A model generated the notes under the pieces. It was not told the origin of the DNA and did no database searches. It was given only the letters and a program-made list of their open reading frames with translations. A stretch of DNA of 64,000 nucleotides from the NCBI GenBank assembly GCA_963848965.1, contig CAWKFG010000004.1, positions 416,001 through 480,000 on the forward strand. Reading direction: 5' to 3'. Below, piece by piece: positions 19,084-39,955 of the stretch; within the stretch, counting starts at the first letter, position 1; every line of letters begins with the position of its first letter. Position numbers and translations under genes: made by a program. Source of the DNA: an uncultured bacterium (lineage in GTDB: Bacteria > Babelota > Babeliae > Babelales > Babelaceae).

Positions 19084-19228
19084 GACGAGCTTTAATATCT
19101 TAGTTAGAAACCAAGTAAATAAGCTAAAGATTTTATACTATAAGCTTGTGATATAAGTTTGTTCAAATCTTAACTTTGATATAATTATATGACTAATAAA
19201 ACTATCTGATCAAGGTTCTAAAGAAGAC

Positions 19229-19259
19229 TGGTGTCTCCTGCTATACATGTTTCGGAACC
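19229..19259 (+). repeat. att-like site R1 (31-bp core)
   Basis: TGGTGTCTCCTGCTATACATGTTTCGGAACC, preceded by GTTCTAAAGAAGAC. Confidence 0.9.
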
Positions 19260-19376
19260 GTGAGCTACTCTTTGAGGTCTATCTCACTAATATTCAAATC
19301 CCTGTAAATAACTGTCAGAGATGTTAAAGAGTCCCTAAACTAAAAATAGTAAAAGTAAGTATTTCATATAATCTTC

Positions 19377-19970
19377 TTAAATTTCTGCATGCTCAACCGA
19401 TTCAAATATAAAAATCTGGCGATCTGCATGCCAGGTAAAGGTGGAAATTGATTCATTGGTTAATGCCGGCAATTCAGCTACATCATACCCTAAATGAGTA
19501 AGTAATGAACCAAGCACGTACCCATGAGTCACCACAGCAACGTGCTGCCCTTCATGTTTTTGCGCGATTTTATTCAGATAGCTCATAACCCGTGCCACCA
19601 CCTGATCGCGCGGTTCAGCTTCAATTATTGCTGGCAAAGAGTCATAATGAAAAGGACCATACAGCGCGCGAAACTCTTTCAAAGTAAGTCCTTGGACTTT
19701 TCCAAAATGTCCTTCACGCAGATCAACGGTAAGAGTAATTTCTAATGAAAACAGTTCAGAAATCTCTTGCGCAGTTTGATGTGCTCTTTGCAAATCAGAT
19801 GAATAAAGCGCGCCAAGCGAAACTTGTTTTTTCTTGAGAAATTGTGCTACTTTTTGCGCCTGCGCTTTTCCGGTTGCATTAAGTGGAATATCTTCATGCC
19901 CTTGCATTTTACCAGCAAGATTCCAATCAGTTTGGCCATGGCGAATAAGCAATAATGTTGTTGAACTCAT
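19377..19970 (-). CDS. Histidine phosphatase family protein
   Basis: LIRHGQTDWN, SSDLQRA, LRE, VTHG. Confidence 0.9.
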   Translation of the reverse strand: MSSTTLLLIRHGQTDWNLAGKMQGHEDIPLNATGKAQAQKVAQFLKKKQVSLGALYSSDLQRAHQTAQEISELFSLEITLTVDLREGHFGKVQGLTLKEFRALYGPFHYDSLPAIIEAEPRDQVVARVMSYLNKIAQKHEGQHVAVVTHGYVLGSLLTHLGYDVAELPALTNESISTFTWHADRQIFIFESVEHAEI

Positions 19971-19989
19971 GGAAAATCCTAAGCAAACG

Positions 19990-20418
19990 TTAAGCCAACA
20001 TATAGTCAACGGAAAATTCTGGAAATACTTCCTTTATCTTTGAAAGCATTGCTAGTGTAGGATTACATTTGCCAGCTTCTAGCCTTTGATAACTCCATAT
20101 TTTGTCAAATCCCATACGCTTTGCCAATTCTTGTTGAGTAAGGTTATGAGACATTCTGAAATATCGTATAAGAAATGAAAAGGCTATATTTGGATCTACC
20201 GGAACTTCTACAACACTTTTTGATGTCTTTATAGAAGCATCAGGAAATGGCGCTAAGTCTTTAGAATTCTCTGGTTCTTCTATATAAAGGTTTAAAGCTT
20301 CCTTCATATTAGCATAAAGCTCTTCCAAGCTATCTGCTTGCGTAACACAACCTTCTAATTCCAAGCAATGTGCCCAAAAGCCTTTTCCTTCTTTATGAAT
20401 TTTGAAATGATACTTCAT
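19990..20418 (-). CDS. hicB: HicB-family antitoxin with C-terminal HTH
   Basis: LEGCVTQADSLEEL...EAL; LTQQELAKRMG HTH. Confidence 0.85.
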   Translation of the reverse strand: MKYHFKIHKEGKGFWAHCLELEGCVTQADSLEELYANMKEALNLYIEEPENSKDLAPFPDASIKTSKSVVEVPVDPNIAFSFLIRYFRMSHNLTQQELAKRMGFDKIWSYQRLEAGKCNPTLAMLSKIKEVFPEFSVDYMLA

Positions 20419-20428
20419 GATTAGTTCC

Positions 20429-20613
20429 TTATTGAGCTGATTTTAATAATTTTCTAAGGTAATGTTCTGTTCCTTTTGCTAATTCTTTATGGTTCGGGAT
20501 AATGGCTTGTTTACAGCCCTTCTTTTTGAGCTTAATATGACTTCCTACTTGTCCCTCAATTCATAGCCAGCCTTTAAAAAAAGCTTAACCATATCCTTAC
20601 CACTAATTGGCAC
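20429..20613 (-). pseudogene. hicA: Frameshifted HicA toxin
   Basis: GGAGG RBS + GTG; MPISGKDMVKLFLKAGYE, then shift to GQVGSHIKLKK...IIPNHKELAKGTEHYLRK. Confidence 0.8.
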
Positions 20614-21018
20614 AAGTCCTCCTTTAATTAATAGTATAATTCTACCAAGTTTAATTGGCATTTGTCAAGGAGTTTAAATATGATATGACAAACTATCCTA
20701 AGACAATATTCGTCTATCTGCCTTCACTCGTCTATTTGTAGAAAAAGCAACTTCACAAATTTATGATGCAATAGAAAGCAATCCAAGGTAGCATATATAA
20801 CAAAACGCCAACATCTTATTGCTTGGATCATAGACACTACTAGGATGCTAACACGGATGCACTAGGACGCCACAGTACATCCTAGTGAATTACCAGGCAA
20901 CAAACTAAAGATAAAATTTTCTATAGCAGTTAGAGCTATGCTATAAGTTTGTTCAAATCACGATTTTGGTATAAATTTATAACAAATATATCGATATATT
21001 AACGATTCTTGAGAATAT

Positions 21019-21048
21019 TGGTGTCCCTTGCTTACATGTTTCGGAACC
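21019..21048 (+). repeat. att-like site R2
   Basis: TGGTGTCCCTTGCTTACATGTTTCGGAACC (1-nt deletion). Confidence 0.9.
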
Positions 21049-21391
21049 GGGAACTTGAATATGAGCCAAACATATACAGCAGCTTGGAATCATTCTACTC
21101 ATCGCTTAGCATTTAGACTAATAGTTGCTAACACTTAGAGGTTTATCTATCAACGCTTGCACTATATCAATAAGTTTTTTACTCTTGAGAAAGTTACTCA
21201 GCAGACTATACTAGGCTATATAAAACTTTTATGACCTAAACTATGGACTTATAATTTTATGGTAAAGATTAAAAAAGCAAAACCAAAATCCACGATCTCA
21301 CTTACGTTAGCTATGGGAATATAGCAAAGTCACCTTTCATAATGAAAAGCATATACTATCATAATTAATTTAACCCTATTGAGAAGCGATT

Positions 21392-21727
21392 ATGACTATT
21401 ACATACAAACAATTTGAGGATGTAGATATTAGAGTAGGTACTATCGTAAACGTTCAGGATTTTCCCGAAGCACGTAAGCCTGCCTATAAACTCTCTATCG
21501 ATTTTGGCAAATCCATTGGTATCAAAAGATCCTCTGCTCAAATAACACATCATTATACGAAAGAGCAACTGTTAGGGAAGCAAGTTTTAGCTGTCGTTAA
21601 TTTTCCTCCTCGCCAAATTGGTCCTTTTATGTCAGAAGTACTAACGCTGGGCTTACCTGACGAATCCGGTAATGTGGTACTTATTCAACCAACATTGACA
21701 ATTCCCAATGGAGGTAAACTTTTTTAA
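21392..21727 (+). CDS. csaA: CsaA-like tRNA-binding protein / export chaperone
   Basis: DIRVGTI...FPEARKPAYKL.IDFG...SSAQIT...VVNFPPRQIGPFMSEVLTLG. Confidence 0.9.
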   Translation: MTITYKQFEDVDIRVGTIVNVQDFPEARKPAYKLSIDFGKSIGIKRSSAQITHHYTKEQLLGKQVLAVVNFPPRQIGPFMSEVLTLGLPDESGNVVLIQPTLTIPNGGKLF

Positions 21728-21776
21728 AAGCTAGAGATTATTAAAGCCCCTTATTCCTTATATAAGAAAAAATTTA

Positions 21777-22283
21777 TTACTGCGATACCGTCGTATCGAT
21801 TGACGTATGCTCTAAATTGGCGCCTTGAAGATTCAGATTGATTAAAAAATTTACTATGCCTCGATTAAAATCTTGAACCATACTAACTCTTCCTCCAGGT
21901 AAAGAATCTCCCAATAATTGTATCACAAGTGCGCGAATCTTTGGAAAGTAATTAAATTTATTTGTTAACCTCACTGTATCATCTATACCTTTAATATATA
22001 AGCTGACTGCTTGTTCATTAGCTTCTGGAAGTATATCTGCTGGTTGCCATTCTGAGCTTAAGTTGAATCTTGTTGAGTGCCCAGATTTTAATAATTGCGG
22101 TCGCTTGAATTCAGTCGAGATTATATAATCGTTAGGTGTTTTATTAGAAACCTGTACAACAATATCAGGATATGCTCCTCTTAATGCAGCTATTACCTCT
22201 TTATCTGGTTCAGGCTCCATTCCTTTAATAGATAAAGGTAGAATATTTAGTAAACCAAAAATACATAAAAAAATTTTATTCAT
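21777..22283 (-). CDS. Hypothetical secreted protein
   Basis: AAGGA RBS, signal peptide followed by GMEPEP. Confidence 0.7.
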   Translation of the reverse strand: MNKIFLCIFGLLNILPLSIKGMEPEPDKEVIAALRGAYPDIVVQVSNKTPNDYIISTEFKRPQLLKSGHSTRFNLSSEWQPADILPEANEQAVSLYIKGIDDTVRLTNKFNYFPKIRALVIQLLGDSLPGGRVSMVQDFNRGIVNFLINLNLQGANLEHTSIDTTVSQ

Positions 22284-22452
22284 ATTGCATCCTTTTTATA
22301 AGCCCTATTAACAAATAAATATATATAATAAATTACAGATTAGTCAATATTAAACTAAATTTAATTATAAACCGTTGTCAGCAAAAGTTCTTGTTTAATT
22401 AACCCATATTTGATATAATGGGAAATATAATTATAAACGAAAGGATCTTATT

Positions 22453-22722
22453 ATGAAATCCATTTACGTAAAGGTTGATGAACGCAATCGTATAGCTTTA
22501 ACTAAGGCTACTAAAACTCCTTACAAAATTTACAAAATTCGCATGGAAGGCGAAACTATAATTCTCGAGCCAGTTATAGAGGCGCCAAAAGAGCAACATT
22601 GGTTATTTAAACCTGAGAATAAACATCTTTTGGCCCAACTTGAAGAGGGCTTAAAGCAAGAAGCTACCATATCTCGTGGTTCGTTTGCACAATATGCGAC
22701 TGACAATGAAGAAGATGAATGA
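22453..22722 (+). CDS. Putative AbrB-like antitoxin
   Basis: VDERNRI.L...G.TIILEP motif, acidic tail, overlaps downstream toxin-like gene. Confidence 0.65.
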   Translation: MKSIYVKVDERNRIALTKATKTPYKIYKIRMEGETIILEPVIEAPKEQHWLFKPENKHLLAQLEEGLKQEATISRGSFAQYATDNEEDE

Positions 22723-23008
22723 AATACGCTTTTCTCCTCGAGCTGATAAAAACATGCAAGATTTGGAAGATGATCCATCCAAGGAAAGAATACTCAAAGA
22801 TGTTAAAAAAGCTCTAGGATTTATGGAAACTAACTTAAGGCATCCTTCATTGCAAACTCATGAATTTGATGAAATGACAGGTCCTAATGGAGAAAAAGTC
22901 TTTGAAGCTTATGCTCAAAATAAGACACCGGGAGCATATAGGATATTCTGGTATTATGGACCGGGAAAAAACGTTATATCAATCATTGCAATTTTACCAC
23001 ATCCTTAA
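22715..23008 (+). CDS. Putative RelE/ParE-superfamily toxin
   Basis: NLRHPSLQTHE...VFEAYAQNKTPGAYRIFWYYGP...ILPHP. Confidence 0.7.
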   Translation: MNEIRFSPRADKNMQDLEDDPSKERILKDVKKALGFMETNLRHPSLQTHEFDEMTGPNGEKVFEAYAQNKTPGAYRIFWYYGPGKNVISIIAILPHP

Positions 23009-23134
23009 TAGGAATTAACAGTCATCAAGCCAAGAGATCAGAAAAGACCATTTATATACTAAAAGTGTCTTAATTAGAGCTTTTGATACATTTTACACCG
23101 AGTATATCGATCTAGAAATGGTTCTAAAGCAAGC

Positions 23135-23165
23135 TGGTGTCCCCTGCTGTACATGTTTCGGAACC
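23135..23165 (+). repeat. att-like site R3
   Basis: TGGTGTCCCCTGCTGTACATGTTTCGGAACC. Confidence 0.92.
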
Positions 23166-23222
23166 GTAAACTTGAATGTGAGATTTGTTTAGATGACATT
23201 AAAGTAATTTTTGTACAACCTA

Positions 23223-24377
23223 TTAAACCTTAATCTCTTTTAATATATTAAGTCCCCAGGCTGTACTCTTTTCACTTAATGGGAAATGAATATTGCCTGG
23301 GAAAATTACATACAAATGATCCAGTCTCAAATCTTCAAGTGCTATATGCATAGATTTTGTCATTTTAGGTGTATCACTGTACTTAAATTCAAAGCCTAAA
23401 CGCTTTCCACTTTTAAAGACAAATAGATCCAGCTCTGCTTTATTAGAAGTTGACCAAAAATAACAATCATCTGCTCTTATTTGCAAACAATTAATAACTT
23501 GCTCTAAAGCAAAACCTTCCCATAATGCCCCAATTTTAGGGTTTTTTGCTAACTCTGTAAGAGTATGAATAGAGGATAAGGTATTAAAAATACCACTATC
23601 TCTAAAATAGATTTTAGGCGTTTTTACTTGTCGCTTTTTTATATTTTCAAACCAAGGCTGCAAAACACGTATCATAAAAGTGCCTGCCAATATATCTAAG
23701 TATTTTTTTATTGTTTTATCTGACAACATTAAAGAATGTGCAATCTCATGAGCATTAAAGTACTGCCCATGATAAAAACAAAGCATCATCCAAAAGCGAT
23801 GCATTATTTTTGAGGGAACATCAAAACCAAAGTTTGGTAGGTCTTTCTCTAGAAAAGTGTTGATATATCCTTCTCGCCATAAAAAACTATCTTCCTCTGA
23901 TTGAGCTAAATAAGATCTCGGAAATCCGCCACGGATGAGTAACTTATCTGAATGATCAACTTCAAAAATGGTAAATGGAGGCAGCTCTATGTAGCCAATT
24001 CTTCCAGCTAATGTTTCTGATGATTGATGTATTAATTCTCTTGATGCGCTTCCCAAAATCAAAAATGAGTATTTTTTTTCTGGATCATCAACAAGTACTC
24101 GTAAAACTGGAAAAAGGTCTGGTCTACGTTGAATTTCATCTATAACAACAAGAAAGTTTTCATACTTGCTTAATGTAAGCATTGGATTTTCTAAGCTTGC
24201 TAAATGGATAGGATTTTCTAAGTCAAAAAACTCAACCTTACCAGTATATTGCTCAGAAAATTGACGCGCTAGTGTTGTTTTTCCTACTTGACGTGCTCCC
24301 AGAATTGCACATATTGGTTGTACCCTTAAATGTCTTTTAACTTGCTCTAAATATATTTTTCTTAGCATATTTTCCAT
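23223..24377 (-). CDS. AAA_14 + DUF4143 ATPase
   Basis: GARQVGKTT, IDEIQ, LGSAS, ETLAGR, KIYFRDSG, ELDL...FEFK. Confidence 0.9.
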   Translation of the reverse strand: MENMLRKIYLEQVKRHLRVQPICAILGARQVGKTTLARQFSEQYTGKVEFFDLENPIHLASLENPMLTLSKYENFLVVIDEIQRRPDLFPVLRVLVDDPEKKYSFLILGSASRELIHQSSETLAGRIGYIELPPFTIFEVDHSDKLLIRGGFPRSYLAQSEEDSFLWREGYINTFLEKDLPNFGFDVPSKIMHRFWMMLCFYHGQYFNAHEIAHSLMLSDKTIKKYLDILAGTFMIRVLQPWFENIKKRQVKTPKIYFRDSGIFNTLSSIHTLTELAKNPKIGALWEGFALEQVINCLQIRADDCYFWSTSNKAELDLFVFKSGKRLGFEFKYSDTPKMTKSMHIALEDLRLDHLYVIFPGNIHFPLSEKSTAWGLNILKEIKV

Positions 24378-24465
24378 GCAAATTCGGAACTATAGTCCAA
24401 TATTACATGGAACTATAGCAAAAGTCAAATGACTAGAATAATCTACCAGACATTCCAAGAAAGGC

Positions 24466-24496
24466 TGCTATCCTCTGCTTGGCATATTTCGGAACC
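24466..24496 (+). repeat. att-like site R4 (degenerate)
   Basis: TGCTATCCTCTGCTTGGCATATTTCGGAACC followed by GAGAGCTTTTGTTTGAGATTGATTTTAAAGA. Confidence 0.8.
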
Positions 24497-24557
24497 GAGA
24501 GCTTTTGTTTGAGATTGATTTTAAAGAGATACAAGCACTTCTTGCTTTACCTTTTCA

Positions 24558-25289
24558 TTAAAATACCATTGTACTTCTTTTATCTTTATTAAGCTTGCTA
24601 AGATATGGCCTTAAGAATCTAATAAATTTTTTTTCATTTGCTATACCTTCTTGAGTATATAAATTAAAGTGTGCCAATGAACGTTCATCTGAATCAATAA
24701 CCAAAAGAGTAACCGGCCTTTGAGGTAGATTTACTAAAGAAAATAGTACCCAGTGGTCACCTACGGTTACAACAAAGTATATTGCTTGTGGCTCTCTCTT
24801 AACCATGGCCATCAGGCGATTAAGTTCTTTATGTAATAAGTCATCCAAGTCTAAAGAAGTCTCTTTAGAATCAAGCAATGTGATTTCGTCCTTCTTTGCT
24901 GTCAAACATATGAGCTTATTTCCAATACCATTTTTATCTGCAAGTCTTTGTATGTGATAGTCCCAAAGGCCCTTATCCTTTCCATACTGAGTATATAGTT
25001 TCTTAAGTGCTTTCTGGTTTCGTAAACCAATTTTTAACACTTCTTTAAAATTACGTGGAGTTTTAAGAGCCTTTTCTATTGCAAGTGCATGAAAAACAGC
25101 CCGCAATCCACAAGACCATTCATCAGCCTGAGCTAGATAATTGCGTATTTGAATTACATTATGCCTAGTAAATTGTTTAGTAACAGTTATTACAAGCGGC
25201 TTACTGAGGGAAATAATATAACTTAACGGCTTGGCCGCTATTTCTGCTATAACTATTAAAAGAGATAAAATAACTATTACACTATTCAT
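24558..25289 (-). CDS. Secreted protein with a possible cysteine-protease triad
   Basis: Signal peptide; QADEWSCG...DHWVL...VIDS. Confidence 0.55.
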   Translation of the reverse strand: MNSVIVILSLLIVIAEIAAKPLSYIISLSKPLVITVTKQFTRHNVIQIRNYLAQADEWSCGLRAVFHALAIEKALKTPRNFKEVLKIGLRNQKALKKLYTQYGKDKGLWDYHIQRLADKNGIGNKLICLTAKKDEITLLDSKETSLDLDDLLHKELNRLMAMVKREPQAIYFVVTVGDHWVLFSLVNLPQRPVTLLVIDSDERSLAHFNLYTQEGIANEKKFIRFLRPYLSKLNKDKRSTMVF

Positions 25290-26016
25290 AATTATACCTT
25301 TGCCTTTAATAAATCACGCTTGCTTTGGCTCTTTGGTACTTTAAGAAAGCCTATAAACTGACAAAAAAATGGGTTTATTTACAAGATTTTAAGCTCTATT
25401 TCAAAAAAGGTTGGAATCTTTTGCGCTTGCTCAACTGCTAGAGCATGCAAGATGACATAGAGGTCACAAAACTAATTATCGTCTTGTGCTAACCTATAGC
25501 ATATGCGTTCAACATATTTTCTTCGTAATTTATTAAATAGGATAATAACAAAAGTATTAGCAAACTCAAACGCTTGGCTTATTCTTAAATTTTAATTAAA
25601 ATAATCGATAAATTTAGCAAAAGCACTATTGAAAACATAGAGGGATAAACTTGCTTCTTAATTGGAGCTAACGGTTCTATTAACAACAATAATTTGGATG
25701 ATATAGAAGAGCATGCTTAAATTTTACGATTAACCCCGAAAAGAATAGTGGCTCCATAGGTTGGGTATTCTTTATCCCCATAAAAGTAAAACGATAAAAT
25801 CTTTCAATGGTGATGCTTGATGGACGAAAAACACCAATAGAAGACTCTAAATTAAGGAAGTCAAATAGCCATCCTTGAGATGGCAACGCCCATCAACCAC
25901 TGCATCTTGCAGCGCACGTTGATTTAGATTTTTATTTGCAAATAAAATTGACATCTATTTTAATATTAGTTACTATAAGTAAGGAATTTAATGTTTTTAT
26001 AATGTAAGGTCTAACT

Positions 26017-27438: not shown

Positions 27439-27494
27439 GCCTTATCCTTTGGTCTTATTTCTATCTAAAGCTTGAGCCCTTAGCAAAAGCCCTA

Positions 27495-27522
27495 TCAGAA
27501 CCGAGAACTTGAATTTGAGGTT
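27495..27522 (+). repeat. att-like site R5 (right arm only)
   Basis: TCAGAACCGAGAACTTGAATTTGAGGTT, near-identical to the R7 right arm. Confidence 0.75.
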
Positions 27523-28455
27523 ACCCTTCATAACGATCTTGAAGCTTTCCTAACCCTTATTCAGGCTAGAATGGTAAATACTTAACGCTATATCCGAACT
27601 CCTGATACGTACGCTTGCAATATATCTATAATTTTTTTACGCTTAAATAAACATCTGACAGACTTTTATTAGGCTAATAAAGCTATTCCTATGGTAAAGA
27701 TTAAAAAAGCACAATTATCAAGTAATAAAGATTTAGGTTCCTTGCTTAATGAGGATTACTTTCAGACCTTGGAGGATCTCAAACAAAAGATCAGGCAAGC
27801 TCAACTGAGAGCATCCCTGTCCGTGAACTTAGAACTTATTAAGCTTTACTAGGAAATCGGCCACACTATTGTCCAAAAGCAAGAAAGCAACGGTTGGGGT
27901 GCCAAGATCATCGATAGTTTTGCTAAGGATTTGCAGGCAGCTTTCCCCGGAATTGAAGGATTTTCCTGCACTAATATCTTCTATATGAGAGCCTTTTATC
28001 TATCTTGTGAAATTGTCCAACAGCTTGTTGGACAATTGTCAGATTTACCGTTCTTTAAGATTCCATGGGGCCACAATGTAACGCTAATCAGCAAGCTCAA
28101 ACATAACGATCAGCGTATATGGTATGCTAAAAAAGCAATAGAAGATGGGTGGAGCAGGCAGGCACTTGAACGAATGATTAAATCTGATCTCTATAGCAGA
28201 CAAGGTAAAGCTATTACTAACTTTAATGAAAAGCTTCCTAATCCTCAATCTCATCTTGCCAACGATATATTAAAATCACCTTATAATTTTGACTTTCTTA
28301 CCTTAACATCTGAATATGATGAACGAGAGCTTGAGCAAGGGCTAGTAGATCATATACAAAAGTTCCTTATAGAATTAGGCAAAGGCTTTGCTTTTGTAGG
28401 AAGGCAATATCATATAGAAGTTGAAGGCAGAGATTATTATATAGATTTGCTCTTT

Positions 28456-31290: not shown

Positions 31291-31546
31291 CTAAGCTCTT
31301 GTTTGAGGTTGACCTTAAAGAAATTCCGGTGATTTTAAACCTGCTAGAAAAGTAATTTTGATATAATAAGAACTTAGTCTTTTAAGCAAACAGTCCCTAA
31401 AAAGTATGCTACAAACTACAAAATCGTACACAAAAGCTATTTATCGCTTATCGTATAGAACCTTGAACAAATTAATTAAACACAGTATTATAAGTGATAC
31501 GATAATCTGGGAATTGGATTCCCAGATTGCAAGCAAGGAGTTTTAT

Positions 31547-32734: not shown

Positions 32735-32825
32735 AAACAAAAAGCCTTCAATAATTCATTGAAAAGCGATTAAGTAAAGTCTAAGCTGCTGAGATTTAAG
32801 AACTGTCTGGCGTTCTAAAGAAATT

Positions 32826-32856
32826 TACTGTCCCCTGCTATGCATATTTCGGAACC
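32826..32856 (+). repeat. att-like site R7
   Basis: TACTGTCCCCTGCTATGCATATTTCGGAACC. Confidence 0.88.
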
Positions 32857-32966
32857 GAGAACTTGAATTTGAGGTTGATCTTAAAGATATCAAACACTAT
32901 TTTACACTATAAAGCTCAGCAACTGCTTGCTATGTTTCTAGACAGTTAATCTTGCACTTTTGGTTA

Positions 32967-33791
32967 CTACTTCCCACCAGATATCTCTTTCCTAGATTTC
33001 CAAGGTTTTCCTGGTAGTAGGCTTACCAATTGCTCACTAACCATTTGGAATGCCTCATTTGAAGACCATATTGATTGATCAGCAATCAAATGTACTATAT
33101 CATTTTGAAAATCAGGATTTTGTTGTTTTTCAAATAAGTTCTTTTCAAACTCCGCGCGAGTAATTGATAGCCCTTCATTACCGCAATACTTTTTAAAGAT
33201 ACTTATTACAGCTTCACAATCAATTAACTCTTTTTTCAAGACAAACCATATATCATAAAGATCTCTTCCTTTACTTCTTTGATATAATGCTCTTAACTTT
33301 GTTCCAATAAGTTCATTAAGCTGGTAAGTTTTAATAGCTGACTTACCAGAAAACCATGTGCTCGCTATAGCAAACTCATAATCTATTAAATCATAAACAC
33401 TAAAATGTTCTGTTGTGTTTATTTCGATTTTTAGTTTGCGCTGTATATTATCGATAGAGCTATATTGATAGGTTAACTTAGCACTTCTGTTAGTAAGTTT
33501 GCCCTTAGGCTGCCCCAACCAAGACAAAGCGGTACGGATCTCGAGAATAAGCGGCCCTATAGGTTGAGAGGTAATTTGAACAAGATCAATATCCTCACTA
33601 TAACGCAATGGAGGCTTAAAAAATAACTTATTAAGAGCTGTTCCTCCTCTAAAAACTAAATTTTCCCTAATTTTTTCACGCTCATATAAGTTTATTAACG
33701 CTCGACTGATAATTAAATCCTGCTCTACTTGATAATCAGCTATCCATGGTACATGCTGTCGCCATTCTGATAAGTAAAAAGTTTCAATCAT
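32967..33791 (-). CDS. abiEii: AbiEii-family nucleotidyltransferase toxin (type IV TA)
   Basis: EQDLII, FRGGTALNK, RYSEDIDL, KLRAL..R.KGRDLYD. Confidence 0.9.
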   Translation of the reverse strand: MIETFYLSEWRQHVPWIADYQVEQDLIISRALINLYEREKIRENLVFRGGTALNKLFFKPPLRYSEDIDLVQITSQPIGPLILEIRTALSWLGQPKGKLTNRSAKLTYQYSSIDNIQRKLKIEINTTEHFSVYDLIDYEFAIASTWFSGKSAIKTYQLNELIGTKLRALYQRSKGRDLYDIWFVLKKELIDCEAVISIFKKYCGNEGLSITRAEFEKNLFEKQQNPDFQNDIVHLIADQSIWSSNEAFQMVSEQLVSLLPGKPWKSRKEISGGK

Positions 33792-34582
33792 ATATCACCT
33801 TCTAGCTTGGTGTTTTCAATGATTTTCCAAGTTTCATTTCTTTTTGCTTTACTGAGTTTTGCCTTAAGGCCAGTATGAAGCATCACATAATTAACTCTTG
33901 GTTGTTTTGACAAGTGCTCTTTTATTACGCTTGCCAGGTTTTTTGCTCCAATAAATTCCAAAATATAACCTAGGCGTTGTTTCCAAGGAGTTCCAGGTAG
34001 GTTCTCTATAACTGATTTTAGCCCTTCCTCGGTCATGCTTTCTTTAAGCTCAGCAAGAATTGTGGTTATATTGTTTAAGCCACCACTTTGTTTTACAAAT
34101 TTAATAAGATCTACTGCTGTAGCTTCTGGACTTGAAACCCTAAGTTTACTCTTCAGCGTAGAGAACCAAGTAACAGGAACCTTTTCAATCTCTTGGTTCT
34201 TGATAAAGTTAATTTTAACCTTACCGCAAACTACAGAGCGCAATTTCTTTTCAGTAACTACTTGAAAAACCTGAGGAGCTTGATGTGATGCTCCGTAATA
34301 GCTAGCGGCTGTAATTAAACCTGCATAGTACTTATACCCTAAGTATTCCATTAAATAGGGAATAAACTGATCAGCGGGAATACACTCAAGAATCTTATAT
34401 TCCGGTGGTATTATCACGTAAAACCCTTTTACTGGACTAACGATTTCTCCTTTACCAATAAGGCGAGAAATGGCATGAAGTATAGCATTCCTAGATTTAT
34501 TGAGCTCTTTATAAGCACTATTTATAGTAAAGTAGCATCTACCATAGGCAACTTGCTTGTTTAAATATTCCTTAATCTTCAT
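33788..34582 (-). CDS. abiEi: AbiEi-family antitoxin
   Basis: GFYVIIPPEY, YYAGLITAA.YYGASHQAPQ, SSPEATAVD; 4-nt overlap with abiEii. Confidence 0.88.
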   Translation of the reverse strand: MKIKEYLNKQVAYGRCYFTINSAYKELNKSRNAILHAISRLIGKGEIVSPVKGFYVIIPPEYKILECIPADQFIPYLMEYLGYKYYAGLITAASYYGASHQAPQVFQVVTEKKLRSVVCGKVKINFIKNQEIEKVPVTWFSTLKSKLRVSSPEATAVDLIKFVKQSGGLNNITTILAELKESMTEEGLKSVIENLPGTPWKQRLGYILEFIGAKNLASVIKEHLSKQPRVNYVMLHTGLKAKLSKAKRNETWKIIENTKLEGDI

Positions 34583-34603
34583 AATTAACAAATTCATTTT
34601 AAT

Positions 34604-34626
34604 AAAATGCCTAAAATCGGCATTTT
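34604..34626. promoter_or_regulatory. Inverted repeat upstream of abiEi, candidate autorepression operator
   Basis: AAAATGCC-N7-GGCATTTT. Confidence 0.5.
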
Positions 34627-35002
34627 GTGCAAACAAAAACGAAGCTAATACTATAATACTTTATGGGCTAAATTTGTCAAAAAATACTCAAAAGTACGCG
34701 TTCCTTAACCCTCTTAGGAGAAAATAAGTAGCTTTTGCTGAATGATTTAAGAACCGAAAATTTTATCTTTGCAACGTCGAAGAAATAATAATTTTAACAA
34801 GCCAGATCTTACATTACCTAGATGTTCATGAAAAAAGCAATTTTACAAAATATCAGCACTTTAGCAATAAAGCTTCATATTTAATAAATATGCATTAAAG
34901 CGCTTCACGAAGACCTTATACTATAATTATATAGTGAATTACATTGAACTGATCTAGTTTCTAAAGAAGGTTGGTGTCCCCTGCTTGTATATTGAAATTA
35001 TG

Positions 35003-35162
35003 TTCCTAAATTTGAGACGTTAAGTTTAGGAAAGCTAGCAGGAGCCTGTTCCCCTGCCTGGTTTTTAAAACCGAGTGTCAACTTAGGACCTGCTAGCATA
35101 TATAGTACAGCTCGAACAATCGAGTGGGACAAGGATCCCGTATACAAAACCGAGGCACTATA
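35003..35162 (+). ncRNA. Bridge RNA of the IS110 element
   Basis: 5' stem-loop; target loop with CCCCTGC; donor loop with ACAATCG and TATACAA. Confidence 0.85.
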
Positions 35163-36106
35163 TGAATACTATATCACATATTTTTGTCGGCATCGATATC
35201 TCTAAAAAATTTTTAGATATTCACTTACATCCTGTGGCTAAAGACTTTAGAGTTGCTAACTCACAAGCTGGAATCAATAAACTCATTCAAGTACTTTCTG
35301 CTTATACTGTCGTACAGATCGTTTTTGAGTCTTCTGGTGGTTACGATTTCCTTCTCAAGCAAGAACTTAGCATTAATAATTATAATGCTTGGCAAGTTCA
35401 GCCTAGACGCATTAGAGCCTTCATCATCTCTGAAGGCATTAAGGCTAAAACTGATAAAATTGATGCTCAAATGATTGCTCTCTTTGCTTCTCAAAAACGG
35501 CCTAAATATCATGAGATTATTCGTTCTCAAGACGAGCTAAAGCTCTGTGCTCTCGTCAAATTCAGGACTAACATTGTCCGAAACATTGTTCAAGAAACCA
35601 ATAAATTGCAGCATCCTCAACAAGTTTACTGTAAAAATTTTCTTGAAGCTCATATCTCCTTTATGGAAAGACAGTTACAGGAAGTTGAACAAGAAATTGA
35701 ACAGCTGATCCAAGACAATGAATCTCTTAATAAAAAATGCCATATTATTGAGTCTATGCCTGGTATCGGCAAAGTCACTGCCTGCTCTTTGCTTGCAGAA
35801 ATGCCTGAGCTTGGCAAAGTCGGTAATAAGCAAATAGCCGCTATTCTAGGTGTAGCACCTTTTATTAAGCAAAGTGGTGGATCTAAAGGCACTGCATCAA
35901 TTAGCGGTGGTAGACAAGCTACCCGTGATATCCTTTATATGGCTACATTAGCAGTTATCAGATTTAATCCTGCACTTAAATGCTTTTATAAACGGCTACG
36001 CACTGTTGGTAAAAAAGCTAAAGTTGCTCTCATTGCTGTTATGCGAAAGGTTATTGGTATTTTAAATGTTATGGTTCGAAAAGGAGAACAATGGCAAACT
36101 ACTTAA
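35162..36106 (+). CDS. IS110-family DEDD recombinase
   Basis: GIDISK, FESSGGY, KTDKIDA, PGIG, QSG. Confidence 0.95.
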   Translation: MNTISHIFVGIDISKKFLDIHLHPVAKDFRVANSQAGINKLIQVLSAYTVVQIVFESSGGYDFLLKQELSINNYNAWQVQPRRIRAFIISEGIKAKTDKIDAQMIALFASQKRPKYHEIIRSQDELKLCALVKFRTNIVRNIVQETNKLQHPQQVYCKNFLEAHISFMERQLQEVEQEIEQLIQDNESLNKKCHIIESMPGIGKVTACSLLAEMPELGKVGNKQIAAILGVAPFIKQSGGSKGTASISGGRQATRDILYMATLAVIRFNPALKCFYKRLRTVGKKAKVALIAVMRKVIGILNVMVRKGEQWQTT

Positions 36107-36318
36107 AATAATTTTTAAACTTGTTGACTTTTAACACAATCGTTTACATGTTTCGGAACCGGAAGCTCATTTTTGAATTTGATCTTAAAGATATTCAATC
36201 AATCATTGCTTCATACAATTTTAGCTTATATTGAAAACTTATATAATAAGCTTTCGATGGTTTACTTCTTCTAGGTATCAGCATTAGAAGGATAAAAAAG
36301 GTAAAACTTCTAGGGATT

Positions 36319-37305
36319 TTACTCTTTTGCGCCATATTTTTTAAGTAACTCTACTATATCTGAATGACCTTTTTCTGTAGCAAGCATTAAAGCAGTTTCG
36401 CCAAACCTATTTCGTACATTAACTTCAGCACCTTTAGCTAAGAGCATTTGAACTATATCTTTATGGCCACCTCGTGTAGCATGCATTAAAACAGTACTTG
36501 TATACAGATCTTTAGCATTAACATCAGCACCAGCCTTAATCAGAAGTTCTACTACCTCTTTATGACCATTTCTTGCAGCGTCCATTAAAGCGGTAAATCC
36601 CACAATATTATCTCGAGCGTTAATATCAGCACCAGCTTGTATAAGCATTTCTACTATTTCTTTATAGCCTTTCACTGCGGGCCTCTTTAAAGCACTATAA
36701 TTATCTTTAGTTTTAACGCCAATGTTAGCATCAGCCCCTTTCTCTAGAAGCAACGCTACAATTTCTCTATAGCCGTTTTGTGCAGCATAATACAAGGCAG
36801 TGCAGCCAAACATTTCCTCTTGAGTATCAATATCACTAATACCTTTACTTAAAATATCTCTTACTTTTTCAATATTTCCCTTTCCAGACGCTTCAATAAG
36901 CCTTAAAGCATTAGGATGTAGCTCTAGCAATTTTTGTGCACTTTGAACTCCACGATTTTCAAGGTCTTTTAGTATCCAATTGGGTTTATATTGTCGAGCA
37001 TACGCTTTTCGTTTTAACTCATTGAGAAGGAATCTCACAAGATCTACATTATCAAATAAGGCTTTATAGTTTTCATTCCTTGCCAATTCTTCTATTTTCT
37101 TAAGAGCTTCAGAAAATGTTTTTGATGACTCTAGAGTTTCTTTGATACTACACTCTAAAGCCTCTCTGATTTTATTATATACTACAAAATGGTTCAGCTC
37201 TTTCCTCAGCTCTTGCGGCAAGTATTCTAGATAACTCTTTTGCTTTTGCATCCCAAGACCAGACGTAAAAAATCCTAACAATAAGATAACTATTACCTTT
37301 TTCAT
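36319..37305 (-). CDS. Ankyrin repeat protein with signal peptide
   Basis: About six ankyrin repeats; GMQK after signal; YLPQEL motif. Confidence 0.92.
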   Translation of the reverse strand: MKKVIVILLLGFFTSGLGMQKQKSYLEYLPQELRKELNHFVVYNKIREALECSIKETLESSKTFSEALKKIEELARNENYKALFDNVDLVRFLLNELKRKAYARQYKPNWILKDLENRGVQSAQKLLELHPNALRLIEASGKGNIEKVRDILSKGISDIDTQEEMFGCTALYYAAQNGYREIVALLLEKGADANIGVKTKDNYSALKRPAVKGYKEIVEMLIQAGADINARDNIVGFTALMDAARNGHKEVVELLIKAGADVNAKDLYTSTVLMHATRGGHKDIVQMLLAKGAEVNVRNRFGETALMLATEKGHSDIVELLKKYGAKE

Positions 37306-37550
37306 GCTTAATTTTCTTTCCAATATTTTTACTGTTATGATTTTATTATAGTTCATAAAGGCACAAGATTCAACTAGCAATTAACTTCTAATGTTAAAAA
37401 GAATAAAACCTTATGCGTTCTAGTTGATTTTAAGAAACAAGCTAGATAAAGGATCTTTCATTAAGCATACGATACAAAATACTCAAATTAGTGATCTTTG
37501 ATGTAAGCCTATGCTAGAAATGTTTTTCTATTCAAGGTTCTAAAGAATAT

Positions 37551-37581
37551 TGGTGTCCCCTGCTATACATGTTTCTGAACC
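37551..37581 (+). repeat. att-like site R9
   Basis: TGGTGTCCCCTGCTATACATGTTTCTGAACC. Confidence 0.92.
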
Positions 37582-37663
37582 AAAAGCTTGAATTTGAGAC
37601 CTGTTTAGATGATATCAAACAGTTTTATCTAGCCTTCAACATTTAGTAAAGTAATTTTTAATA

Positions 37664-38239
37664 TCAAGATCTAGCAAAAGCTAGTAACTTTGAATAATCA
37701 CCTTTGTCTGCATATTGTAATGCTTCAATATATAGTTTCCTAACAGGAGACGAGTTATATAAACTTTGATTTAAACCCCAACTAAAGCGATCATAACCTT
37801 GTTGTGTTATGAGCACATCAGCCATTAATCGAGCATGCCTTCCATTACCGTTAGGAAAGGGATGAATCCATACCAATTTATAATGAAGTCTGATTGCTAT
37901 CTCTTCTTTAGAGAAGGACTCATGTAGCAATTGGTAACTAACGTCATCACACAATTTTCTAACTTCCACAGGAATCAAATACCAACTAATACCAAGGTTT
38001 TTCTCAGTCTTACGAAACTTGCCTGCCCACTTCCATGTTTGATTAAACATATGCTTATGCAGCTGCTGTATAAATTCAACAGATAAAATACCATGTTGTT
38101 TAAATGCCCATTGTTGAGCCTTGAGAATATTTTTTTCTTCCCAAGCATTCAACTCTTCCTGAGTAGTAATATGTACAGGTAGTAAATCAGCTAACTCGCC
38201 AGGATCAATTGGTGTCGCACCCTCAGGATAATTAAACAT
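37664..38239 (-). CDS. Fic-domain protein (mobile mystery protein B type)
   Basis: GATPID, ELNAWE, WKWAGKFR, HPFPNGNGRHARL. Confidence 0.9.
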   Translation of the reverse strand: MFNYPEGATPIDPGELADLLPVHITTQEELNAWEEKNILKAQQWAFKQHGILSVEFIQQLHKHMFNQTWKWAGKFRKTEKNLGISWYLIPVEVRKLCDDVSYQLLHESFSKEEIAIRLHYKLVWIHPFPNGNGRHARLMADVLITQQGYDRFSWGLNQSLYNSSPVRKLYIEALQYADKGDYSKLLAFARS

Positions 38240-38705
38240 GACCTTTATCCCATAAGTTTCTTGGGTTACCTTGTAACAGCTCTTCAACTAAAGCATCTTC
38301 CTGTTGCTTTAATTGCTTTGGATTTAAACTTTGCTGTTCCAATCCCATTGAATGATTTATTAATTTTATCTGTTTTTGCGCTACAGTTCTAGCTTGATCT
38401 TCAAGTATCTGATCGAGTGGCTTTAAAGGCACAAGGCAATAAACCAGCTTACAGTTCATAGCAGCTGCAGCCTGTTCAAGAGTCTTTAAGTTAATAGTTC
38501 CTTTTTGTTCACTCTGTTCCATAGCAATAATGTTAGACTGGCTACATCCAACCTTTTGAGATAAGGCGTAACTTGAAAGTCCTAATGATTCACGTATAGC
38601 CCGTATCCATCCCTTTTTAGGAGGTGGCTTTTTAGTGAGTTCTAAAAACTTACTTGTAGTCTCTTGAAGTTGCTCTCGCATTAACTTTCTAAAGATATTT
38701 GTCAT
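38232..38705 (-). CDS. HTH protein (mobile mystery protein A type)
   Basis: PKKGWIRAIRESLG...L..AA.AM.CKLVY...HSMGLEQQ. Confidence 0.88.
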   Translation of the reverse strand: MTNIFRKLMREQLQETTSKFLELTKKPPPKKGWIRAIRESLGLSSYALSQKVGCSQSNIIAMEQSEQKGTINLKTLEQAAAAMNCKLVYCLVPLKPLDQILEDQARTVAQKQIKLINHSMGLEQQSLNPKQLKQQEDALVEELLQGNPRNLWDKGHV

Positions 38706-38970
38706 ACATAATAACCTATAATTTATCAAATCATCTAAAATTAATCAATTATAGCTTATCAAAATTGGATAAAAAAATCAATTAAAATTGATTAAAATTT
38801 CGTCGAAACTATACTAAGGATACGTAGTAAAGCACTATATTCTTGTAAGAGTGACAAATTTACTTAGAGATTAACTTGAAAGTACTTAGTTGTAGATATA
38901 GCACGATATGTCAAACTAAGTTAAACTATTATTGTATAATAATTCTTCGTTTTAATGTGAATTGATAGGC

Positions 38971-39816
38971 ATGAACTATAAAAATAAAAGTATGATCAAA
39001 TATGGTGCAATTGGTATCATAATCATATTAGTTGGAGTATGGTTATTTACTTATTTGGCAGCCCCTATAAAAACTATACATTCTTTTAATGAAATTAACT
39101 TTAATAAAATAAAGCCTGGCACACTCGTAATTTTTGATGTCGATGAGACGCTTATCCAACCTCTAGATAGCTATTATATAAATGAACATACGCCTCAAGC
39201 CCACGAATTTAGAAAAAAGTTATTTATGAAGCACCCAGAAATTAAAAATTGGGATATCTATGCCGATATTACTCTTAAGGAAGTAAAGCGGCCATTAATT
39301 GAGCCAATGGTTATTTCCAAAATAAAAGAATTAGAAGGGAAAGGAGTCTATGTTATTGCCTGTACCGCTATGAATACAGGCAAATTTGGAACTTTAGAAA
39401 GACTGGAAGCATGGCGCTATGAACATCTTGCATCATTAGGATTTCAAGGACATTTTGGAGATTTAATTATAGACTTATCTTTAGAAAATCGAAAGCCTGT
39501 ATTTTATAAAGGAATCTTGGCAACTGATTTATTAACTAAAGGACTAGTAGTTTTCGCTTTTCTCGATCACATTCACCTTATACCCAAAGAAATTGTTATG
39601 GTTGATGATAGCATAGAATTTTTAGAATCAATGCTCCAAGAATGCAAAAAAAGAAATATCTCTTATCAAGGATATTTGTATCAAGGAGCTCGTCAAAAAT
39701 TTTGGGATAAAAAGTTAATTGAGTTTCAGTCAGAGTATCTTATTAAACATAAGAAATGGTTAAGTGATAATGAAGCTCGAGCAATTTTAGCAAAGTCGTC
39801 TCAATCAATGCTTTAA
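38971..39816 (+). CDS. HAD-like DUF2608-type protein with N-terminal TM segment
   Basis: IFDVDETL, CTA, KG, MVDDS. Confidence 0.75.
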   Translation: MNYKNKSMIKYGAIGIIIILVGVWLFTYLAAPIKTIHSFNEINFNKIKPGTLVIFDVDETLIQPLDSYYINEHTPQAHEFRKKLFMKHPEIKNWDIYADITLKEVKRPLIEPMVISKIKELEGKGVYVIACTAMNTGKFGTLERLEAWRYEHLASLGFQGHFGDLIIDLSLENRKPVFYKGILATDLLTKGLVVFAFLDHIHLIPKEIVMVDDSIEFLESMLQECKKRNISYQGYLYQGARQKFWDKKLIEFQSEYLIKHKKWLSDNEARAILAKSSQSML

Positions 39817-39878
39817 TTAGGGACTTTTATACATTCCAATAACTAATATAATTATACAATCGCGATTCTAAACGAAGC

Positions 39879-39955
39879 TGGTGTGCCCGGTAGGATTCGA
39901 ACCTACGACCTACGGATTAGAAATCCGTTGCTCTATCCAGCTGAGCTACGGGCAC
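39879..39955 (-). tRNA. tRNA-Arg(TCT)
   Basis: 77-nt cloverleaf GTGCCCG...TTTCTAA...GGTTCGAATCC...CGGGCACACCA. Confidence 0.96.

Follow-up and report, generated by a model that had tools for sequence, protein, structure and literature searches.

Introduction

How do small groups of genes come to be stacked one behind another at the end of a tRNA gene when no site-specific recombinase is encoded among them? This question is raised by a 64,000-nucleotide stretch of DNA (C4:416001-480000, hereafter the window) from an uncultured Dependentiae bacterium (GenBank assembly GCA_963848965.1, contig CAWKFG010000004.1), the genome of which comprises 1.73 Mb (1,726,235 bases) in five contigs with 37% G+C. 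Between 19.2 and 37.6 kb of the window, a direct repeat of approximately 95 nt occurs in nine copies, all on the + strand and all downstream of the 3' end of a tRNA-Arg(TCT) gene. The repeats delimit nine or ten units of 1.3-3.8 kb each, with genes on both strands. The initial annotation described this region as an integron-like platform without a recombinase of its own, in which gene cassettes enter at the CCA end of the tRNA through a recombinase supplied in trans.

Dependentiae are obligate intracellular bacteria that infect protists and have small genomes; how they gain genes is poorly understood. Textbooks describe the capture of small, ordered gene cassettes for integrons only, whose enzyme is a tyrosine recombinase and whose sites are folded single strands. 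A literature search revealed no description of cassette arrays of large serine recombinases (LSRs) of the present kind for Dependentiae. The evidence presented here indicates that the region is probably an accretion array at the tRNA-Arg(TCT) 3' end, built by a Dependentiae-wide family of LSRs that target tRNA genes. The mechanism put forward by the initial annotation is the best supported of the readings weighed below.

Repeat sites at the tRNA-Arg(TCT) gene

Seven of the nine copies are full length (approximately 96 nt each; Table 1). Their alignment contains 35 invariant columns, with a mean column identity of 77%, and agrees with the repeat consensus given in the initial annotation. A profile of the seven copies was run against the whole genome. 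Those seven scored E values from 2e-24 to 3e-19, and three partial pieces scored from 7e-9 to 1.5e-4, all of them within 19215-37630 of the window. Alignment and profile together confirm the nine repeats. The half site noted at 27495 keeps only the distal right arm (27487-27540), and the pair noted at 34972 and 36145 is a single site, split by a 1,159-bp element of the IS110 family. An array of this kind is far beyond chance expectation. Outside it, the profile gave weak matches only, at C2:10427 (5e-5), C1:392678 (1e-3), and C3:3969 (0.03). Weak relatives of the repeat occur in four or five other islands of the genome, in the same orientation relative to the tRNA (Glu, Asp, or Arg(TCG)) wherever the tRNA is on the contig. 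The genome-wide scatter without a tRNA link that would have spoken against the initial annotation was not seen; strong copies are found only in the array.

Each repeat has three parts: the end of the left-hand unit, a core O (TGGTGT) identical to the last 6 nt of the tRNA gene, and an arm of approximately 70 nt, named b, that forms the start of the right-hand unit. TGGTGT is the reverse complement of the tRNA end ACACCA, and tRNA-Arg(TCT) is the only tRNA that ARAGORN found in the window. The left arm is approximately 25 nt long; the sites read TTCTAAAGAAGAC-TGGTGT, against TTCTAAACGAAGC-TGGTGT at the tRNA gene itself (39866-39884), and the two diverge after TGGTGT. The match to the tRNA flank and 3' end, followed by divergence, had been described in the initial annotation and is borne out by alignment. 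So is the intergenic position of the sites, each of which lies between open reading frames (ORFs) of at least 60 aa and overlaps none of them.

RNAalifold gave a weak consensus for the seven sites (-2.29 kcal/mol, nine pairs, no compensatory or covarying pair), that is, no conserved hairpin or structure, and an Rfam scan produced no match at the sites. These results bear on the idea that the array is a classical integron or an integrase-less remnant of one, with attC sites. Small, promoter-poor units that include toxin-antitoxin modules and are separated by sites of 60-100 nt would suit an integron. However, the contig encodes no IntI-type tyrosine recombinase, and the only two tyrosine recombinases of the genome (PF00589; C1:311439 and C1:501041) are Xer-sized proteins of 308 and 312 aa. 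The sites lack the conserved imperfect hairpin, the genes stand on both strands, and the array ends at a tRNA end instead of an attI site. An integron proper is extremely improbable. By Pfam, neither a tyrosine nor a serine recombinase is encoded on contig C4 or among the 25 ORFs of the region. The description "recombinase-less" holds for these two enzyme classes and fails for the island at large, which carries an IS110 transposase and the reverse transcriptase of a group II intron.

Large serine recombinase genes that end in tRNA genes

The only serine recombinase of the genome, P0001 (486 aa), is encoded on contig C1, outside the island. It contains the Resolvase (PF00239, 8.5e-21), Recombinase (PF07508, 5.3e-14), and Zn_ribbon_recom (PF13408, 6.2e-8) domains. 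Its N-terminus reads ...ARVSTEEQ, a motif within which we take the catalytic serine to lie. The P0001 ORF (L015:1109-2569, - strand) runs into a tRNA-Arg(TCG) gene on the opposite strand (L015:1048-1123, +), and its last five codons and stop codon (QAWRAR*) are encoded by the acceptor end of that tRNA. Among solved structures, the sole detectable likeness is to the catalytic domain of TP901-1 integrase (E 1.8e-6).

A homolog search returned 2,170 proteins at E <= 1e-10, named as Candidatus Dependentiae, Candidatus Babeliales, and candidate division TM6. The best 120 of the 2,170 are 64-72% identical to the query, and the overlap with a tRNA is a general property among them. In 78 of these 120, the protein ends 0-4 residues past the W whose codon, TGG, reads CCA on the opposite strand; in 27, the frame reads through the antisense tRNA (...DSNLRPTD...). 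A pattern caught b-like tails in nine, one of which (P0020) was recognized by eye as a tRNA read-through, leaving eight. Four have other tails and two lack the anchor. The loci of relatives agree. An antisense tRNA was found at the LSR gene end in 15 of 15 loci from 13 genomes, which represent 15 of the 23 places with a near-full-length ortholog, and in 16 of 16 when G079:C8 is added. The tRNAs are Glu (six loci), Asp (three, plus G079:C8), Gln (three), Arg-TCT (two), and Arg-CCT (one). Among metagenome loci that include the LSR 3' end, 22 of 30 have an antisense tRNA. The other eight comprise three with tRNA-like antisense tails and no called tRNA (L139, L152, L153), three with b-like arms (L143, L146, L161), and two of other kinds (L144, L145).

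The ORFs of P0019, P0031, P0037, and P0048 read 40-65 residues through the antisense tRNA strand (...GRKDSNLRMPGPKPGALPLG...). Owing to such read-through, the annotated LSR lengths of 484-551 aa vary for reasons unrelated to the enzyme.

The initial annotation had postulated a cognate recombinase in the clade; an LSR is present in the clade and in the genome itself, with its stop codon inside a tRNA 3' end. The recombinase missing from the array can be assigned to this family, whose members are candidates for the enzyme that acts on the sites.

The island at tRNA-Arg(TCG) (C1:377048-403000; L015, L016) carries the only LSR gene of the genome together with three sites composed of core and b arm. 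Its cargo includes Gp49/antidote and HigB/HTH toxin-antitoxin pairs, a fragment of a Rep_3-type initiator gene, a yhcG fragment, and NUDIX, DJ-1/PfpI, and ankyrin genes. Part of this island recurs on contig C3 (9.5 kb), and the assembly is ambiguous at this place.

A core-arm module shared with LSR elements

The array sites belong to a wider family. In this genome and three other Dependentiae genomes, the same core and b arm follow a left arm that contains a hairpin. A profile of this family lands on or near the 3' ends of tRNA-Glu, tRNA-Lys, tRNA-Asp, tRNA-Leu, and tRNA-Ala, because the hairpin arm is the trailer that directly follows 9 of the 33 tRNAs of the genome. From TGG onward, 17 sites from seven Dependentiae genomes are colinear, apart from a single-nucleotide deletion in window site 2. 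A model built on this part, core O plus arm b (O-b), matches the genome at 19 places: nine in the window array, three before tRNA-Glu, one before tRNA-Asp, three after tRNA-Arg(TCG) on C1 with a duplicate on C3, and two at the start of C2. The orientation relative to the tRNA is identical wherever the tRNA is on the contig. The cores follow the local tRNA, with TGGTGT in the window (Arg-TCT), TGGCGG in an array of the related genome G043 (Asp), and TGGCGT or TGGCGG in the Glu and Asp islands of the window genome. In another relative, G002, an O-b site (L053, G002:C1 ~14439-14574) is oriented opposite to a recombinase/tRNA pair 14 kb away; recombination between the two would therefore invert the interval, not delete it.

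The left halves vary, being an LSR gene end in autonomous elements and a trailer-like arm in the window. The trailer follows CCA in, for example, tRNA-Asp (C4:219922), tRNA-Glu (C4:523966), and tRNA-Leu (C1:325362). In tRNA sense, it consists of a 5-bp stem with a 4-nt loop (GCTCC-NNNN-GGAGC), followed by a second hairpin (CTGGC..GCCAG), and its position is roughly mirror-symmetric to that of the T arm. The trailer may be the left half of the chromosomal site of the recombinase. At tRNA-Asp it reads TCTAAAGAAG-CTGG...CTGG, against TCTAAACGAAG-CTGG in the window; the window left arm could thus be a trailer that has lost its hairpin by deletion between two CTGG repeats. The idea that the left arm is a leftover of an LSR gene 3' end was rejected after a profile built from the terminal 150 nt of 16 LSR genes matched none of the left arms; an in-frame "FD..W" resemblance is accordingly given no weight.

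Several observations tie the b arm to the LSR. The tRNA-Asp site of the window genome, translated in frame, matches residues 480-512 of P0059 (...SQLWSPLVDAFRNGKVEFTISLSHIQSTFSFLN) at 58% identity (pairwise BLASTP E 1e-10), although a b-arm peptide profile scores this tail at only E 0.32 among the 120 proteins. Downstream of the LSR gene, L143, L146, and L161 have TGG-N18-(T/C)TTCG(G/A)A in place of a tRNA. Relatives have a single O-b site 8-15 kb upstream of the LSR gene, which is the expected far junction of one integrated element. Across 101 genomes, which are related and not independent, O-b sites (E <= 1e-4) were found in 23 of 25 with an LSR ortholog (at least 44% identity, fragments included) and in 13 of 76 without one.

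The b arm also carries a coding signal. The frame in which TGG encodes W is open in all eight arms that keep the arm start. Pairwise differences fall on the three codon positions as 145:107:212, and single-base codon changes are 69 synonymous and 87 non-synonymous in this frame, against 16/119 and 32/110 in the other two. Such figures would be expected of a small gene or leader, in which the right arm encodes a conserved peptide of 22-28 aa (MFRNRELEFEVDLKDI...) or a regulatory RNA for the neighboring gene. However, the start codon is ATA in two of the eight arms, the C-terminal halves are unconserved, the neighboring genes lie on either strand, and the lack of covarying pairs and of an Rfam match argues against a structured RNA. 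The signal is explained by the LSR frame, which runs through the core into b in an excised or tandem configuration, and we consider a gene or leader of this kind very improbable.

The geometry of the b arm resembles that of a tRNA. Counted from the first base of TGG, 15 of 17 b arms have a T-loop-like motif (TTCGGAAC or TYAGGAAC) beginning at +22; one of the remaining two has it at +21, and the other was missed by the pattern. For the genuine T-loop (TTCGAAC), the pattern caught 19 of the 33 tRNAs, with a start at +17; the others have variant T-loops. In the Listeria phage integrase, the motif recognized by the zinc-ribbon domain is 5 bp nearer the center in attB than in attP (Rutherford et al., PMC3783163). 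The same 5-bp offset is found in the right half of the present sites. By this rule, spacings of +22 and +17 would make b a P-type half-site and the tRNA end a B-type half-site.

The position of exchange can be read from the identity block between the two junctions of one element. The block is TGGTGT in G094, TGGCGTCCC in G004, TGGCGG in G043, and TATGGCTG in G019, that is, TGG plus 3-6 nt in four of five elements. These blocks place the exchange within the last 6-9 nt of the tRNA, and they are indirect evidence for the enzyme-driven recombination with a 2-bp crossover that is typical of LSR elements. The crossover within ACACCA proposed by the initial annotation fits the blocks in these four genomes and is a plausible position in the window as well.

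The b arm is in addition the landing place of an insertion sequence. The genome contains three IS110 copies that are 99.7% identical (window 34986-36144, C1:386018-387196, and C1:396668-397838), and all three occupy one position of an O-b site, after CCCCT(G/A)CT and 14 nt to the right of TGG, with identical orientation. O-b sites thus double as homing targets of an insertion sequence, a situation that recalls the IS1111-attC elements of integrons. IS110-family elements target repeated sequences, and the uniform placement could be taken to mean that the repeats are a dispersed element, similar to a repetitive extragenic palindrome (REP) or a miniature inverted-repeat transposable element (MITE), that merely serves as an IS110 landing pad and lies near the tRNA by accident. 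This explanation is highly unlikely, given that strong copies occur only in the array and weaker ones only in tRNA-oriented islands, that the core changes with the local tRNA, and that the right arm continues the LSR reading frame. The insertion point also lies inside the arm and not at a unit boundary. For the same reason, IS110 was rejected as the mover of the units. A fourth, different IS110-type transposase gene is located at C4:13658-14083.

Cassettes in related genomes

The window genome is the only one of its genus among the genomes compared; the behavior of cassettes was therefore followed in other genera. On G043:C8, six sites 0.7-0.85 kb apart and a degenerate seventh precede the LSR element of tRNA-Asp on its upstream side. 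In order, their units encode Fic, ParE+RelB, Gp49+HTH, DUF5615+DUF433, a small ORF with an antidote HTH protein, and ParE+RelB. There is one toxin-antitoxin pair per unit, and the units contain no recombinase gene. G079 is congeneric with G043, in another genus of the order than the window genome. Common to both are the left ParE/RelB cassette, 87% identical as far as the site, and the LSR element. In the interval between these two parts at tRNA-Asp, G043 has four cassettes and G079 has one of 0.96 kb, which encodes a 261-aa protein with a penicillin-binding transpeptidase-type domain and has no similarity to the four G043 units, even by tblastx. Similarity between the two genomes stops and resumes at sites. 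Strain differences that ended elsewhere had been named in the initial annotation as an adverse outcome; in this pair, the homology breakpoints fall at sites. G079:C4 carries an array directly at tRNA-Gln that has no LSR gene, with four sites and single-gene units including ankyrin proteins. Closely spaced site pairs also occur in G035, G026, and G045.

The 261-aa protein of the G079:C8 cassette (L192 491-4249) matches PF00905 at 2e-44 and has a size that would be typical of class D beta-lactamases. After the cassette come three consecutive genes for aminoglycoside/APH-type kinases, which lie inside the recombinase element.

These arrays bear on the rival explanation that the repeats are fossil scars, in which full LSR elements have decayed to addictive or defensive modules, the small units were never mobile, and no recombinase acted in trans. 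Several facts are in keeping with decay. Full LSR elements of 8-15 kb with a single distal O-b junction are common in relatives; toxin-antitoxin and abortive-infection modules, which are resistant to deletion, are frequent in the cargo; several window sites are degenerate; and the left arms look more like tRNA trailers than like the ends of LSR genes. However, random deletion would not end every unit exactly at a core that rebuilds the tRNA, nor would it leave similar left arms between units of unrelated cargo. G043 has five consecutive intact toxin-antitoxin units of 0.7-0.85 kb with sites on both sides, and its difference from G079 is the replacement of whole units with breakpoints at sites. 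On balance, we consider fossil scars unlikely, and accretion by insertion at the tRNA end remains the preferred explanation.

Proposed mechanism

Accretion by an LSR would proceed as follows. A circular unit carrying O-b would recombine with the tRNA end, that is, the core followed by the T arm (O-T), the cut falling among the terminal 6-9 nt of the tRNA. In the product, the unit would stand beside the tRNA, the tRNA 3' end would be regenerated, and an O-b junction would be left on the far side. Repeated rounds would stack units, the newest nearest the tRNA. In this scheme b, with its imitation of the T arm, would supply the P-type half-site, and the acceptor and T arm of the tRNA would supply the B-type one. 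One LSR subunit would make specific contacts with the acceptor and T arm, and another with b. The LSR could be supplied in trans, either by the single LSR gene of the genome at tRNA-Arg(TCG) or by a passing element. Recombination between two directly repeated sites could also set free a circle made of one unit or of several adjoining units. Cutting of the sites by an LSR, action in trans, the order of arrival, and any present activity are what we infer from sequence comparison.

A number of observations weigh against this mechanism or limit it. In the assembled sequence, neither a recombination product nor a circle or polymorphism of this array was seen. Canonical serine integrases recombine attP with attB only, and the hybrid products are inert without a directionality factor (PMC3783163). 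The left half of each junction would come from the previous unit, and serial insertion would therefore require a relaxed form of the attP x attB rule. In G043, the left arm is unconserved beyond TTAC, which leaves a single conserved half-site where canonical serine integrases bind two. The profile of LSR 3' ends matches the LSR of this genome (E 2e-36) and no left arm, the next best match having an E value of 1.1. The junctions of the G006 element share only TGG. The sole LSR gene of the genome is at another tRNA with another core (TGGCGC, against TGGTGT in the array). Three of the nine sites are damaged (site 4 with core TGCTAT, site 7 with core TACTGT, and site 5 reduced to a half), and another is split by IS110; some of the array is therefore probably no longer functional. 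A proper distal junction is lacking at its left end. Finally, the site type with the left arm of the window was not found in other genomes by profile and pattern scans. A model of the seven window sites gave only weak single matches, in 3 of 100 relatives. A degenerate pattern gave 69 single matches in genome contigs, from unrelated taxa, where approximately 69 or more are expected by chance (15 fixed and three two-fold positions, 1.2e12 positions). A stricter pattern gave no match in metagenome contigs. Records of the window genome itself were possibly absent from these scans.

A broader proposal would make the system an analog of the integron that is run by a serine recombinase and is widespread in Dependentiae. 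It has several parts, which are judged here together. A unit would need only core and b, and the chromosome only a tRNA end (core and B-type half-site). Each insertion would regenerate both kinds of site, and capture and release would both be P x B reactions that need no directionality factor. The recombinase C-terminus would be rewritten at each event, to 2-3 residues at a tRNA and to a conserved tail of approximately 35 residues (W..(D)AFRN..EF..L..IQ) where the gene abuts a b arm, and the enzyme could in this way record its own state, which would set its direction or activity. Taken as a whole, this proposal is tentative and on the doubtful side.

Comparison with known systems

The ssrA islands of Dehalococcoides are a close parallel. 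These islands are in tandem and bounded by a 20-bp repeat of the tmRNA gene end (PMC3146451). The gene of the serine recombinase DsiB overlaps the site at its own 3' end, so that its stop codon depends on the neighbor, and dsiB is suggested to be complete perhaps only on the circle. Some of the islands have no integration module and are proposed to be cis-mobilizable (PMC3146451). Both systems thus place tandem units at the 3' end of a small RNA gene, with a recombinase gene that overlaps the attachment site. They differ in target, since ssrA islands insert in the T-loop of tmRNA, whereas the Dependentiae sites are at many tRNAs, with a 6-9-nt core at the CCA end and an arm of approximately 70 nt. 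The ssrA islands are large and have a six-gene integration module that includes a second, small recombinase, DsiA. Units in Dependentiae measure 0.7-3.8 kb and often hold just one gene or toxin-antitoxin pair, with one 486-aa protein as the recombinase. The tmRNA gene of the window genome is on C2, and the targets seen for the LSR family are tRNA genes.

The staphylococcal cassette chromosome (SCC) also includes pseudo-SCC units without ccr genes, which stand in tandem with recombinase-bearing units and can be moved by them; the array resembles this arrangement. In SCCmec and the Enterococcus cassette chromosome (ECC), LSRs insert at the 3' end of one conserved gene and direct repeats of approximately 50 bp stand at every boundary (PMC6222049). 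They differ from the array in their rlmH target, the CcrA and CcrB pairs, and an element size of tens of kilobases (PMC6222049). They are not known to have a T-loop-mimic arm, and their recombinase gene does not lie across the site. The LSR of the window genome has no paired second recombinase beside its gene, and the target of the array is a tRNA end, not the rlmH 3' end at which CcrAB or CcrC integrates SCC and ECC elements.

Tycheposons of Prochlorococcus are tRNA islands that grow by repeated integration in which newer elements push older ones away; integrase-less remnants occur, and a minority of elements use LSRs, tyrosine recombinases being found in 910 of 937 (bioRxiv 10.1101/2020.12.28.424599). 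They differ in their partial tRNA copies between neighbors, their replication genes, and their much larger size. In the array, only 6 nt of the tRNA recur at the junctions, and the units have neither integrase nor replication genes.

Integrons (PMC4889954, PMC11551772) share with the array a fixed entry point, stacked units of one gene or one toxin-antitoxin pair with one site each, and a recombinase encoded outside the units. In both, a family of insertion sequences homes to the sites. They use a tyrosine enzyme and a folded single-stranded site, whereas here the enzyme would be a serine recombinase, the site a double-stranded half-site plus core, and the entry point a tRNA. The array also differs in having neither a common promoter nor a common gene orientation. 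"Integron-like" is therefore apt for the workings of the array and misleading as to its identity, given the absence of IntI and of a conserved site hairpin and the presence of genes on both strands.

Serine integrases of the phage type (A118/LI, phiC31, Bxb1) have the same set of Resolvase, Recombinase, and zinc-ribbon domains, short sites, and a recognition motif 5 bp further out on the mobile partner (PMC3783163). They need two specific half-sites in each site, whereas the sites here are alike across genomes in the right half only and their junctions would be reused. A recombinase gene is absent from all nine or ten window units, and likewise from the units of the G043 and G079:C4 arrays.

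The principle is precedented by ssrA islands, SCC, and tycheposons. What appears to be new is the use of many tRNAs through the universal CCA end and T arm, together with a long P-type arm that mimics the T-loop. The small size of units, down to one toxin-antitoxin pair, and the host clade Dependentiae appear to be new as well. An LSR acting at tRNA ends could thereby give an integron-like outcome, with stacked units of one gene or one operon, mostly for defense, toxin-antitoxin, and host-interaction functions. Natural serine integrases that target the conserved tRNA T arm and CCA end, with partner sites of approximately 50-95 nt, may also interest genome engineers.

Content of the array and neighboring genes

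The features of the array are listed in Table 1. The cargo comprises AbiE, two PDC-S01 ATPases, YhcG, Fic, HicB-like and ParE-like modules, an ankyrin protein, and others. Most units of the initial annotation stand. The unit described as "protease-like + HD-like" does not, since the 243-aa ORF has no Pfam match and the second protein belongs to DUF6829. A blastn search of the array against its own genome found only yhcG, ATPase, and ankyrin paralogs, the IS110 copies, and the sites; no unit is duplicated at another tRNA.

Table 1. Coordinates in the window of the sites, units, and resident elements of the array.
Feature	Position	Strand	Evidence
Truncated yhcG 3' fragment, broken leftmost unit	18703..19083	+	Pfam YhcG_C 6.6e-26
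Site 1 (left arm, core TGGTGT at 19229, b arm)	19205..19300	+	Profile E 6e-23
Unit A: histidine phosphatase (19377-20009), HicB-like/HTH antitoxin (19990-20418)	19377..20418	-	Pfam His_Phos_1 3.6e-47, HTH_3 3.7e-7, HicB_lk_antitox 3e-4 (below family cut-off)
Site 2 (b arm with 1-nt deletion)	20995..21090	+	Profile E 3e-19
Unit B: CsaA-like tRNA-binding protein (21392-21727, +), 168-aa ORF without assignment (21777-22283, -)	21392..23008		Pfam tRNA_bind 6.7e-15
Unit B, rest: 89-aa ORF and ParE-like toxin	22453..23008	+	Pfam ParE_toxin 0.0039 (weak)
Site 3	23111..23206	+	Profile E 3.5e-24
Unit C: AAA_14/DUF4143 ATPase	23223..24377	-	Pfam DUF4143 1.1e-38, AAA_14 9e-26; PADLOC PDC-S01 8e-73
Site 4 (degenerate core)	24442..24537	+	Profile E 5e-21
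Unit D: 243-aa ORF (24558-25289, -), DUF6829 protein (26017-27438, +)	24558..27438		Pfam DUF6829 5.5e-82
Site 5, half site, distal b arm only	27487..27540	+	Repeat copy 27487-27519; profile E 1.5e-4
Unit E: yhcG (DUF1016/PD-(D/E)xK nuclease) interrupted by group II intron (~28446-30793)	27931..31109	+	PADLOC PDC-S02
Site 6	31236..31331	+	Profile E 2e-24
Unit F: second AAA_14/DUF4143 ATPase	31406..32734	+	Pfam DUF4143 1.3e-49; PADLOC PDC-S01 9e-103
Site 7 (degenerate core)	32802..32897	+	Profile E 5e-23
Unit G: AbiEii toxin (32967-33791), AbiEi antitoxin (33788-34636)	32967..34636	-	Pfam AbiEii 4.9e-35, AbiEi_1 4.3e-39; PADLOC AbiEii 2e-101, AbiEi 8e-87
Site 8, left part (left arm, core, CCCCTGCT)	34949..34985	+	
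IS110-family insertion sequence within site 8 (transposase 35162-36106)	34986..36144	+	Pfam DEDD_Tnp_IS110, Transposase_20
Site 8, right part (b arm)	36145..36235	+	Profile E 7e-9
Unit H: ankyrin-repeat protein	36319..37380	-	Pfam Ank_2 5.6e-45; PADLOC PDC-M72A 1.4e-34
Site 9	37527..37622	+	Profile E 1e-22
Unit I: Fic/DOC (37664-38287, -), HTH protein (38232-38729, -), DUF2608 protein (38962-39816, +)	37664..39816		Pfam Fic 3.7e-15, HTH_3 4.6e-7, DUF2608 8.9e-26; PADLOC PDC-S04 and SoFic
tRNA-proximal junction: site-type left arm fused to tRNA 3' end (TTCTAAACGAAGC-TGGTGT)	39866..39884	+	
tRNA-Arg(TCT), anchor, attB-like target	39879..39955	-	ARAGORN; Rfam tRNA 76.3 bits

The yhcG gene of unit E is split into two exons (27931-28551 and 30666-31109), which carry the DUF1016_N and YhcG_C domains. 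The group II intron between them contains a reverse transcriptase/maturase ORF at 28984-30657 (RVT_1, RVT_N, GIIM) and domains V-VI at 30698-30776 (Rfam Intron_gpII, 30699-30776). An intron-less yhcG paralog in the tRNA-Asp island (C4:217238-218118) brackets the intron insertion by blastn. The truncated yhcG copy at the left of the array matches the 3' end of this gene at 91% identity over 300 nt (18787-19086 vs. 30813-31112), and a longer match extends to 19278 and 31309 at 85%. The two yhcG ends are 91% alike in the gene and approximately 75% alike in the left arm, and the similarity ends at the site. The truncated copy is therefore counted as a tenth, broken unit on the left of the array.

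A gene for a PAF-acetylhydrolase-like alpha/beta hydrolase (PF03403 5e-25; 17433-18575) adjoins the broken left end. As to synteny at this boundary, G071 shares the tRNA only, and in G094 the ATP synthase operon is on the opposite side of the element. There, the operon lies beyond the far element end, convergent with tRNA-Arg(TCT) (L050, G094:C2 44-6006), and in the window genome it lies directly upstream of tRNA-Arg(TCT) on the same strand (40019-46035). In one of the two lineages, the neighborhood has undergone an inversion with respect to the tRNA.

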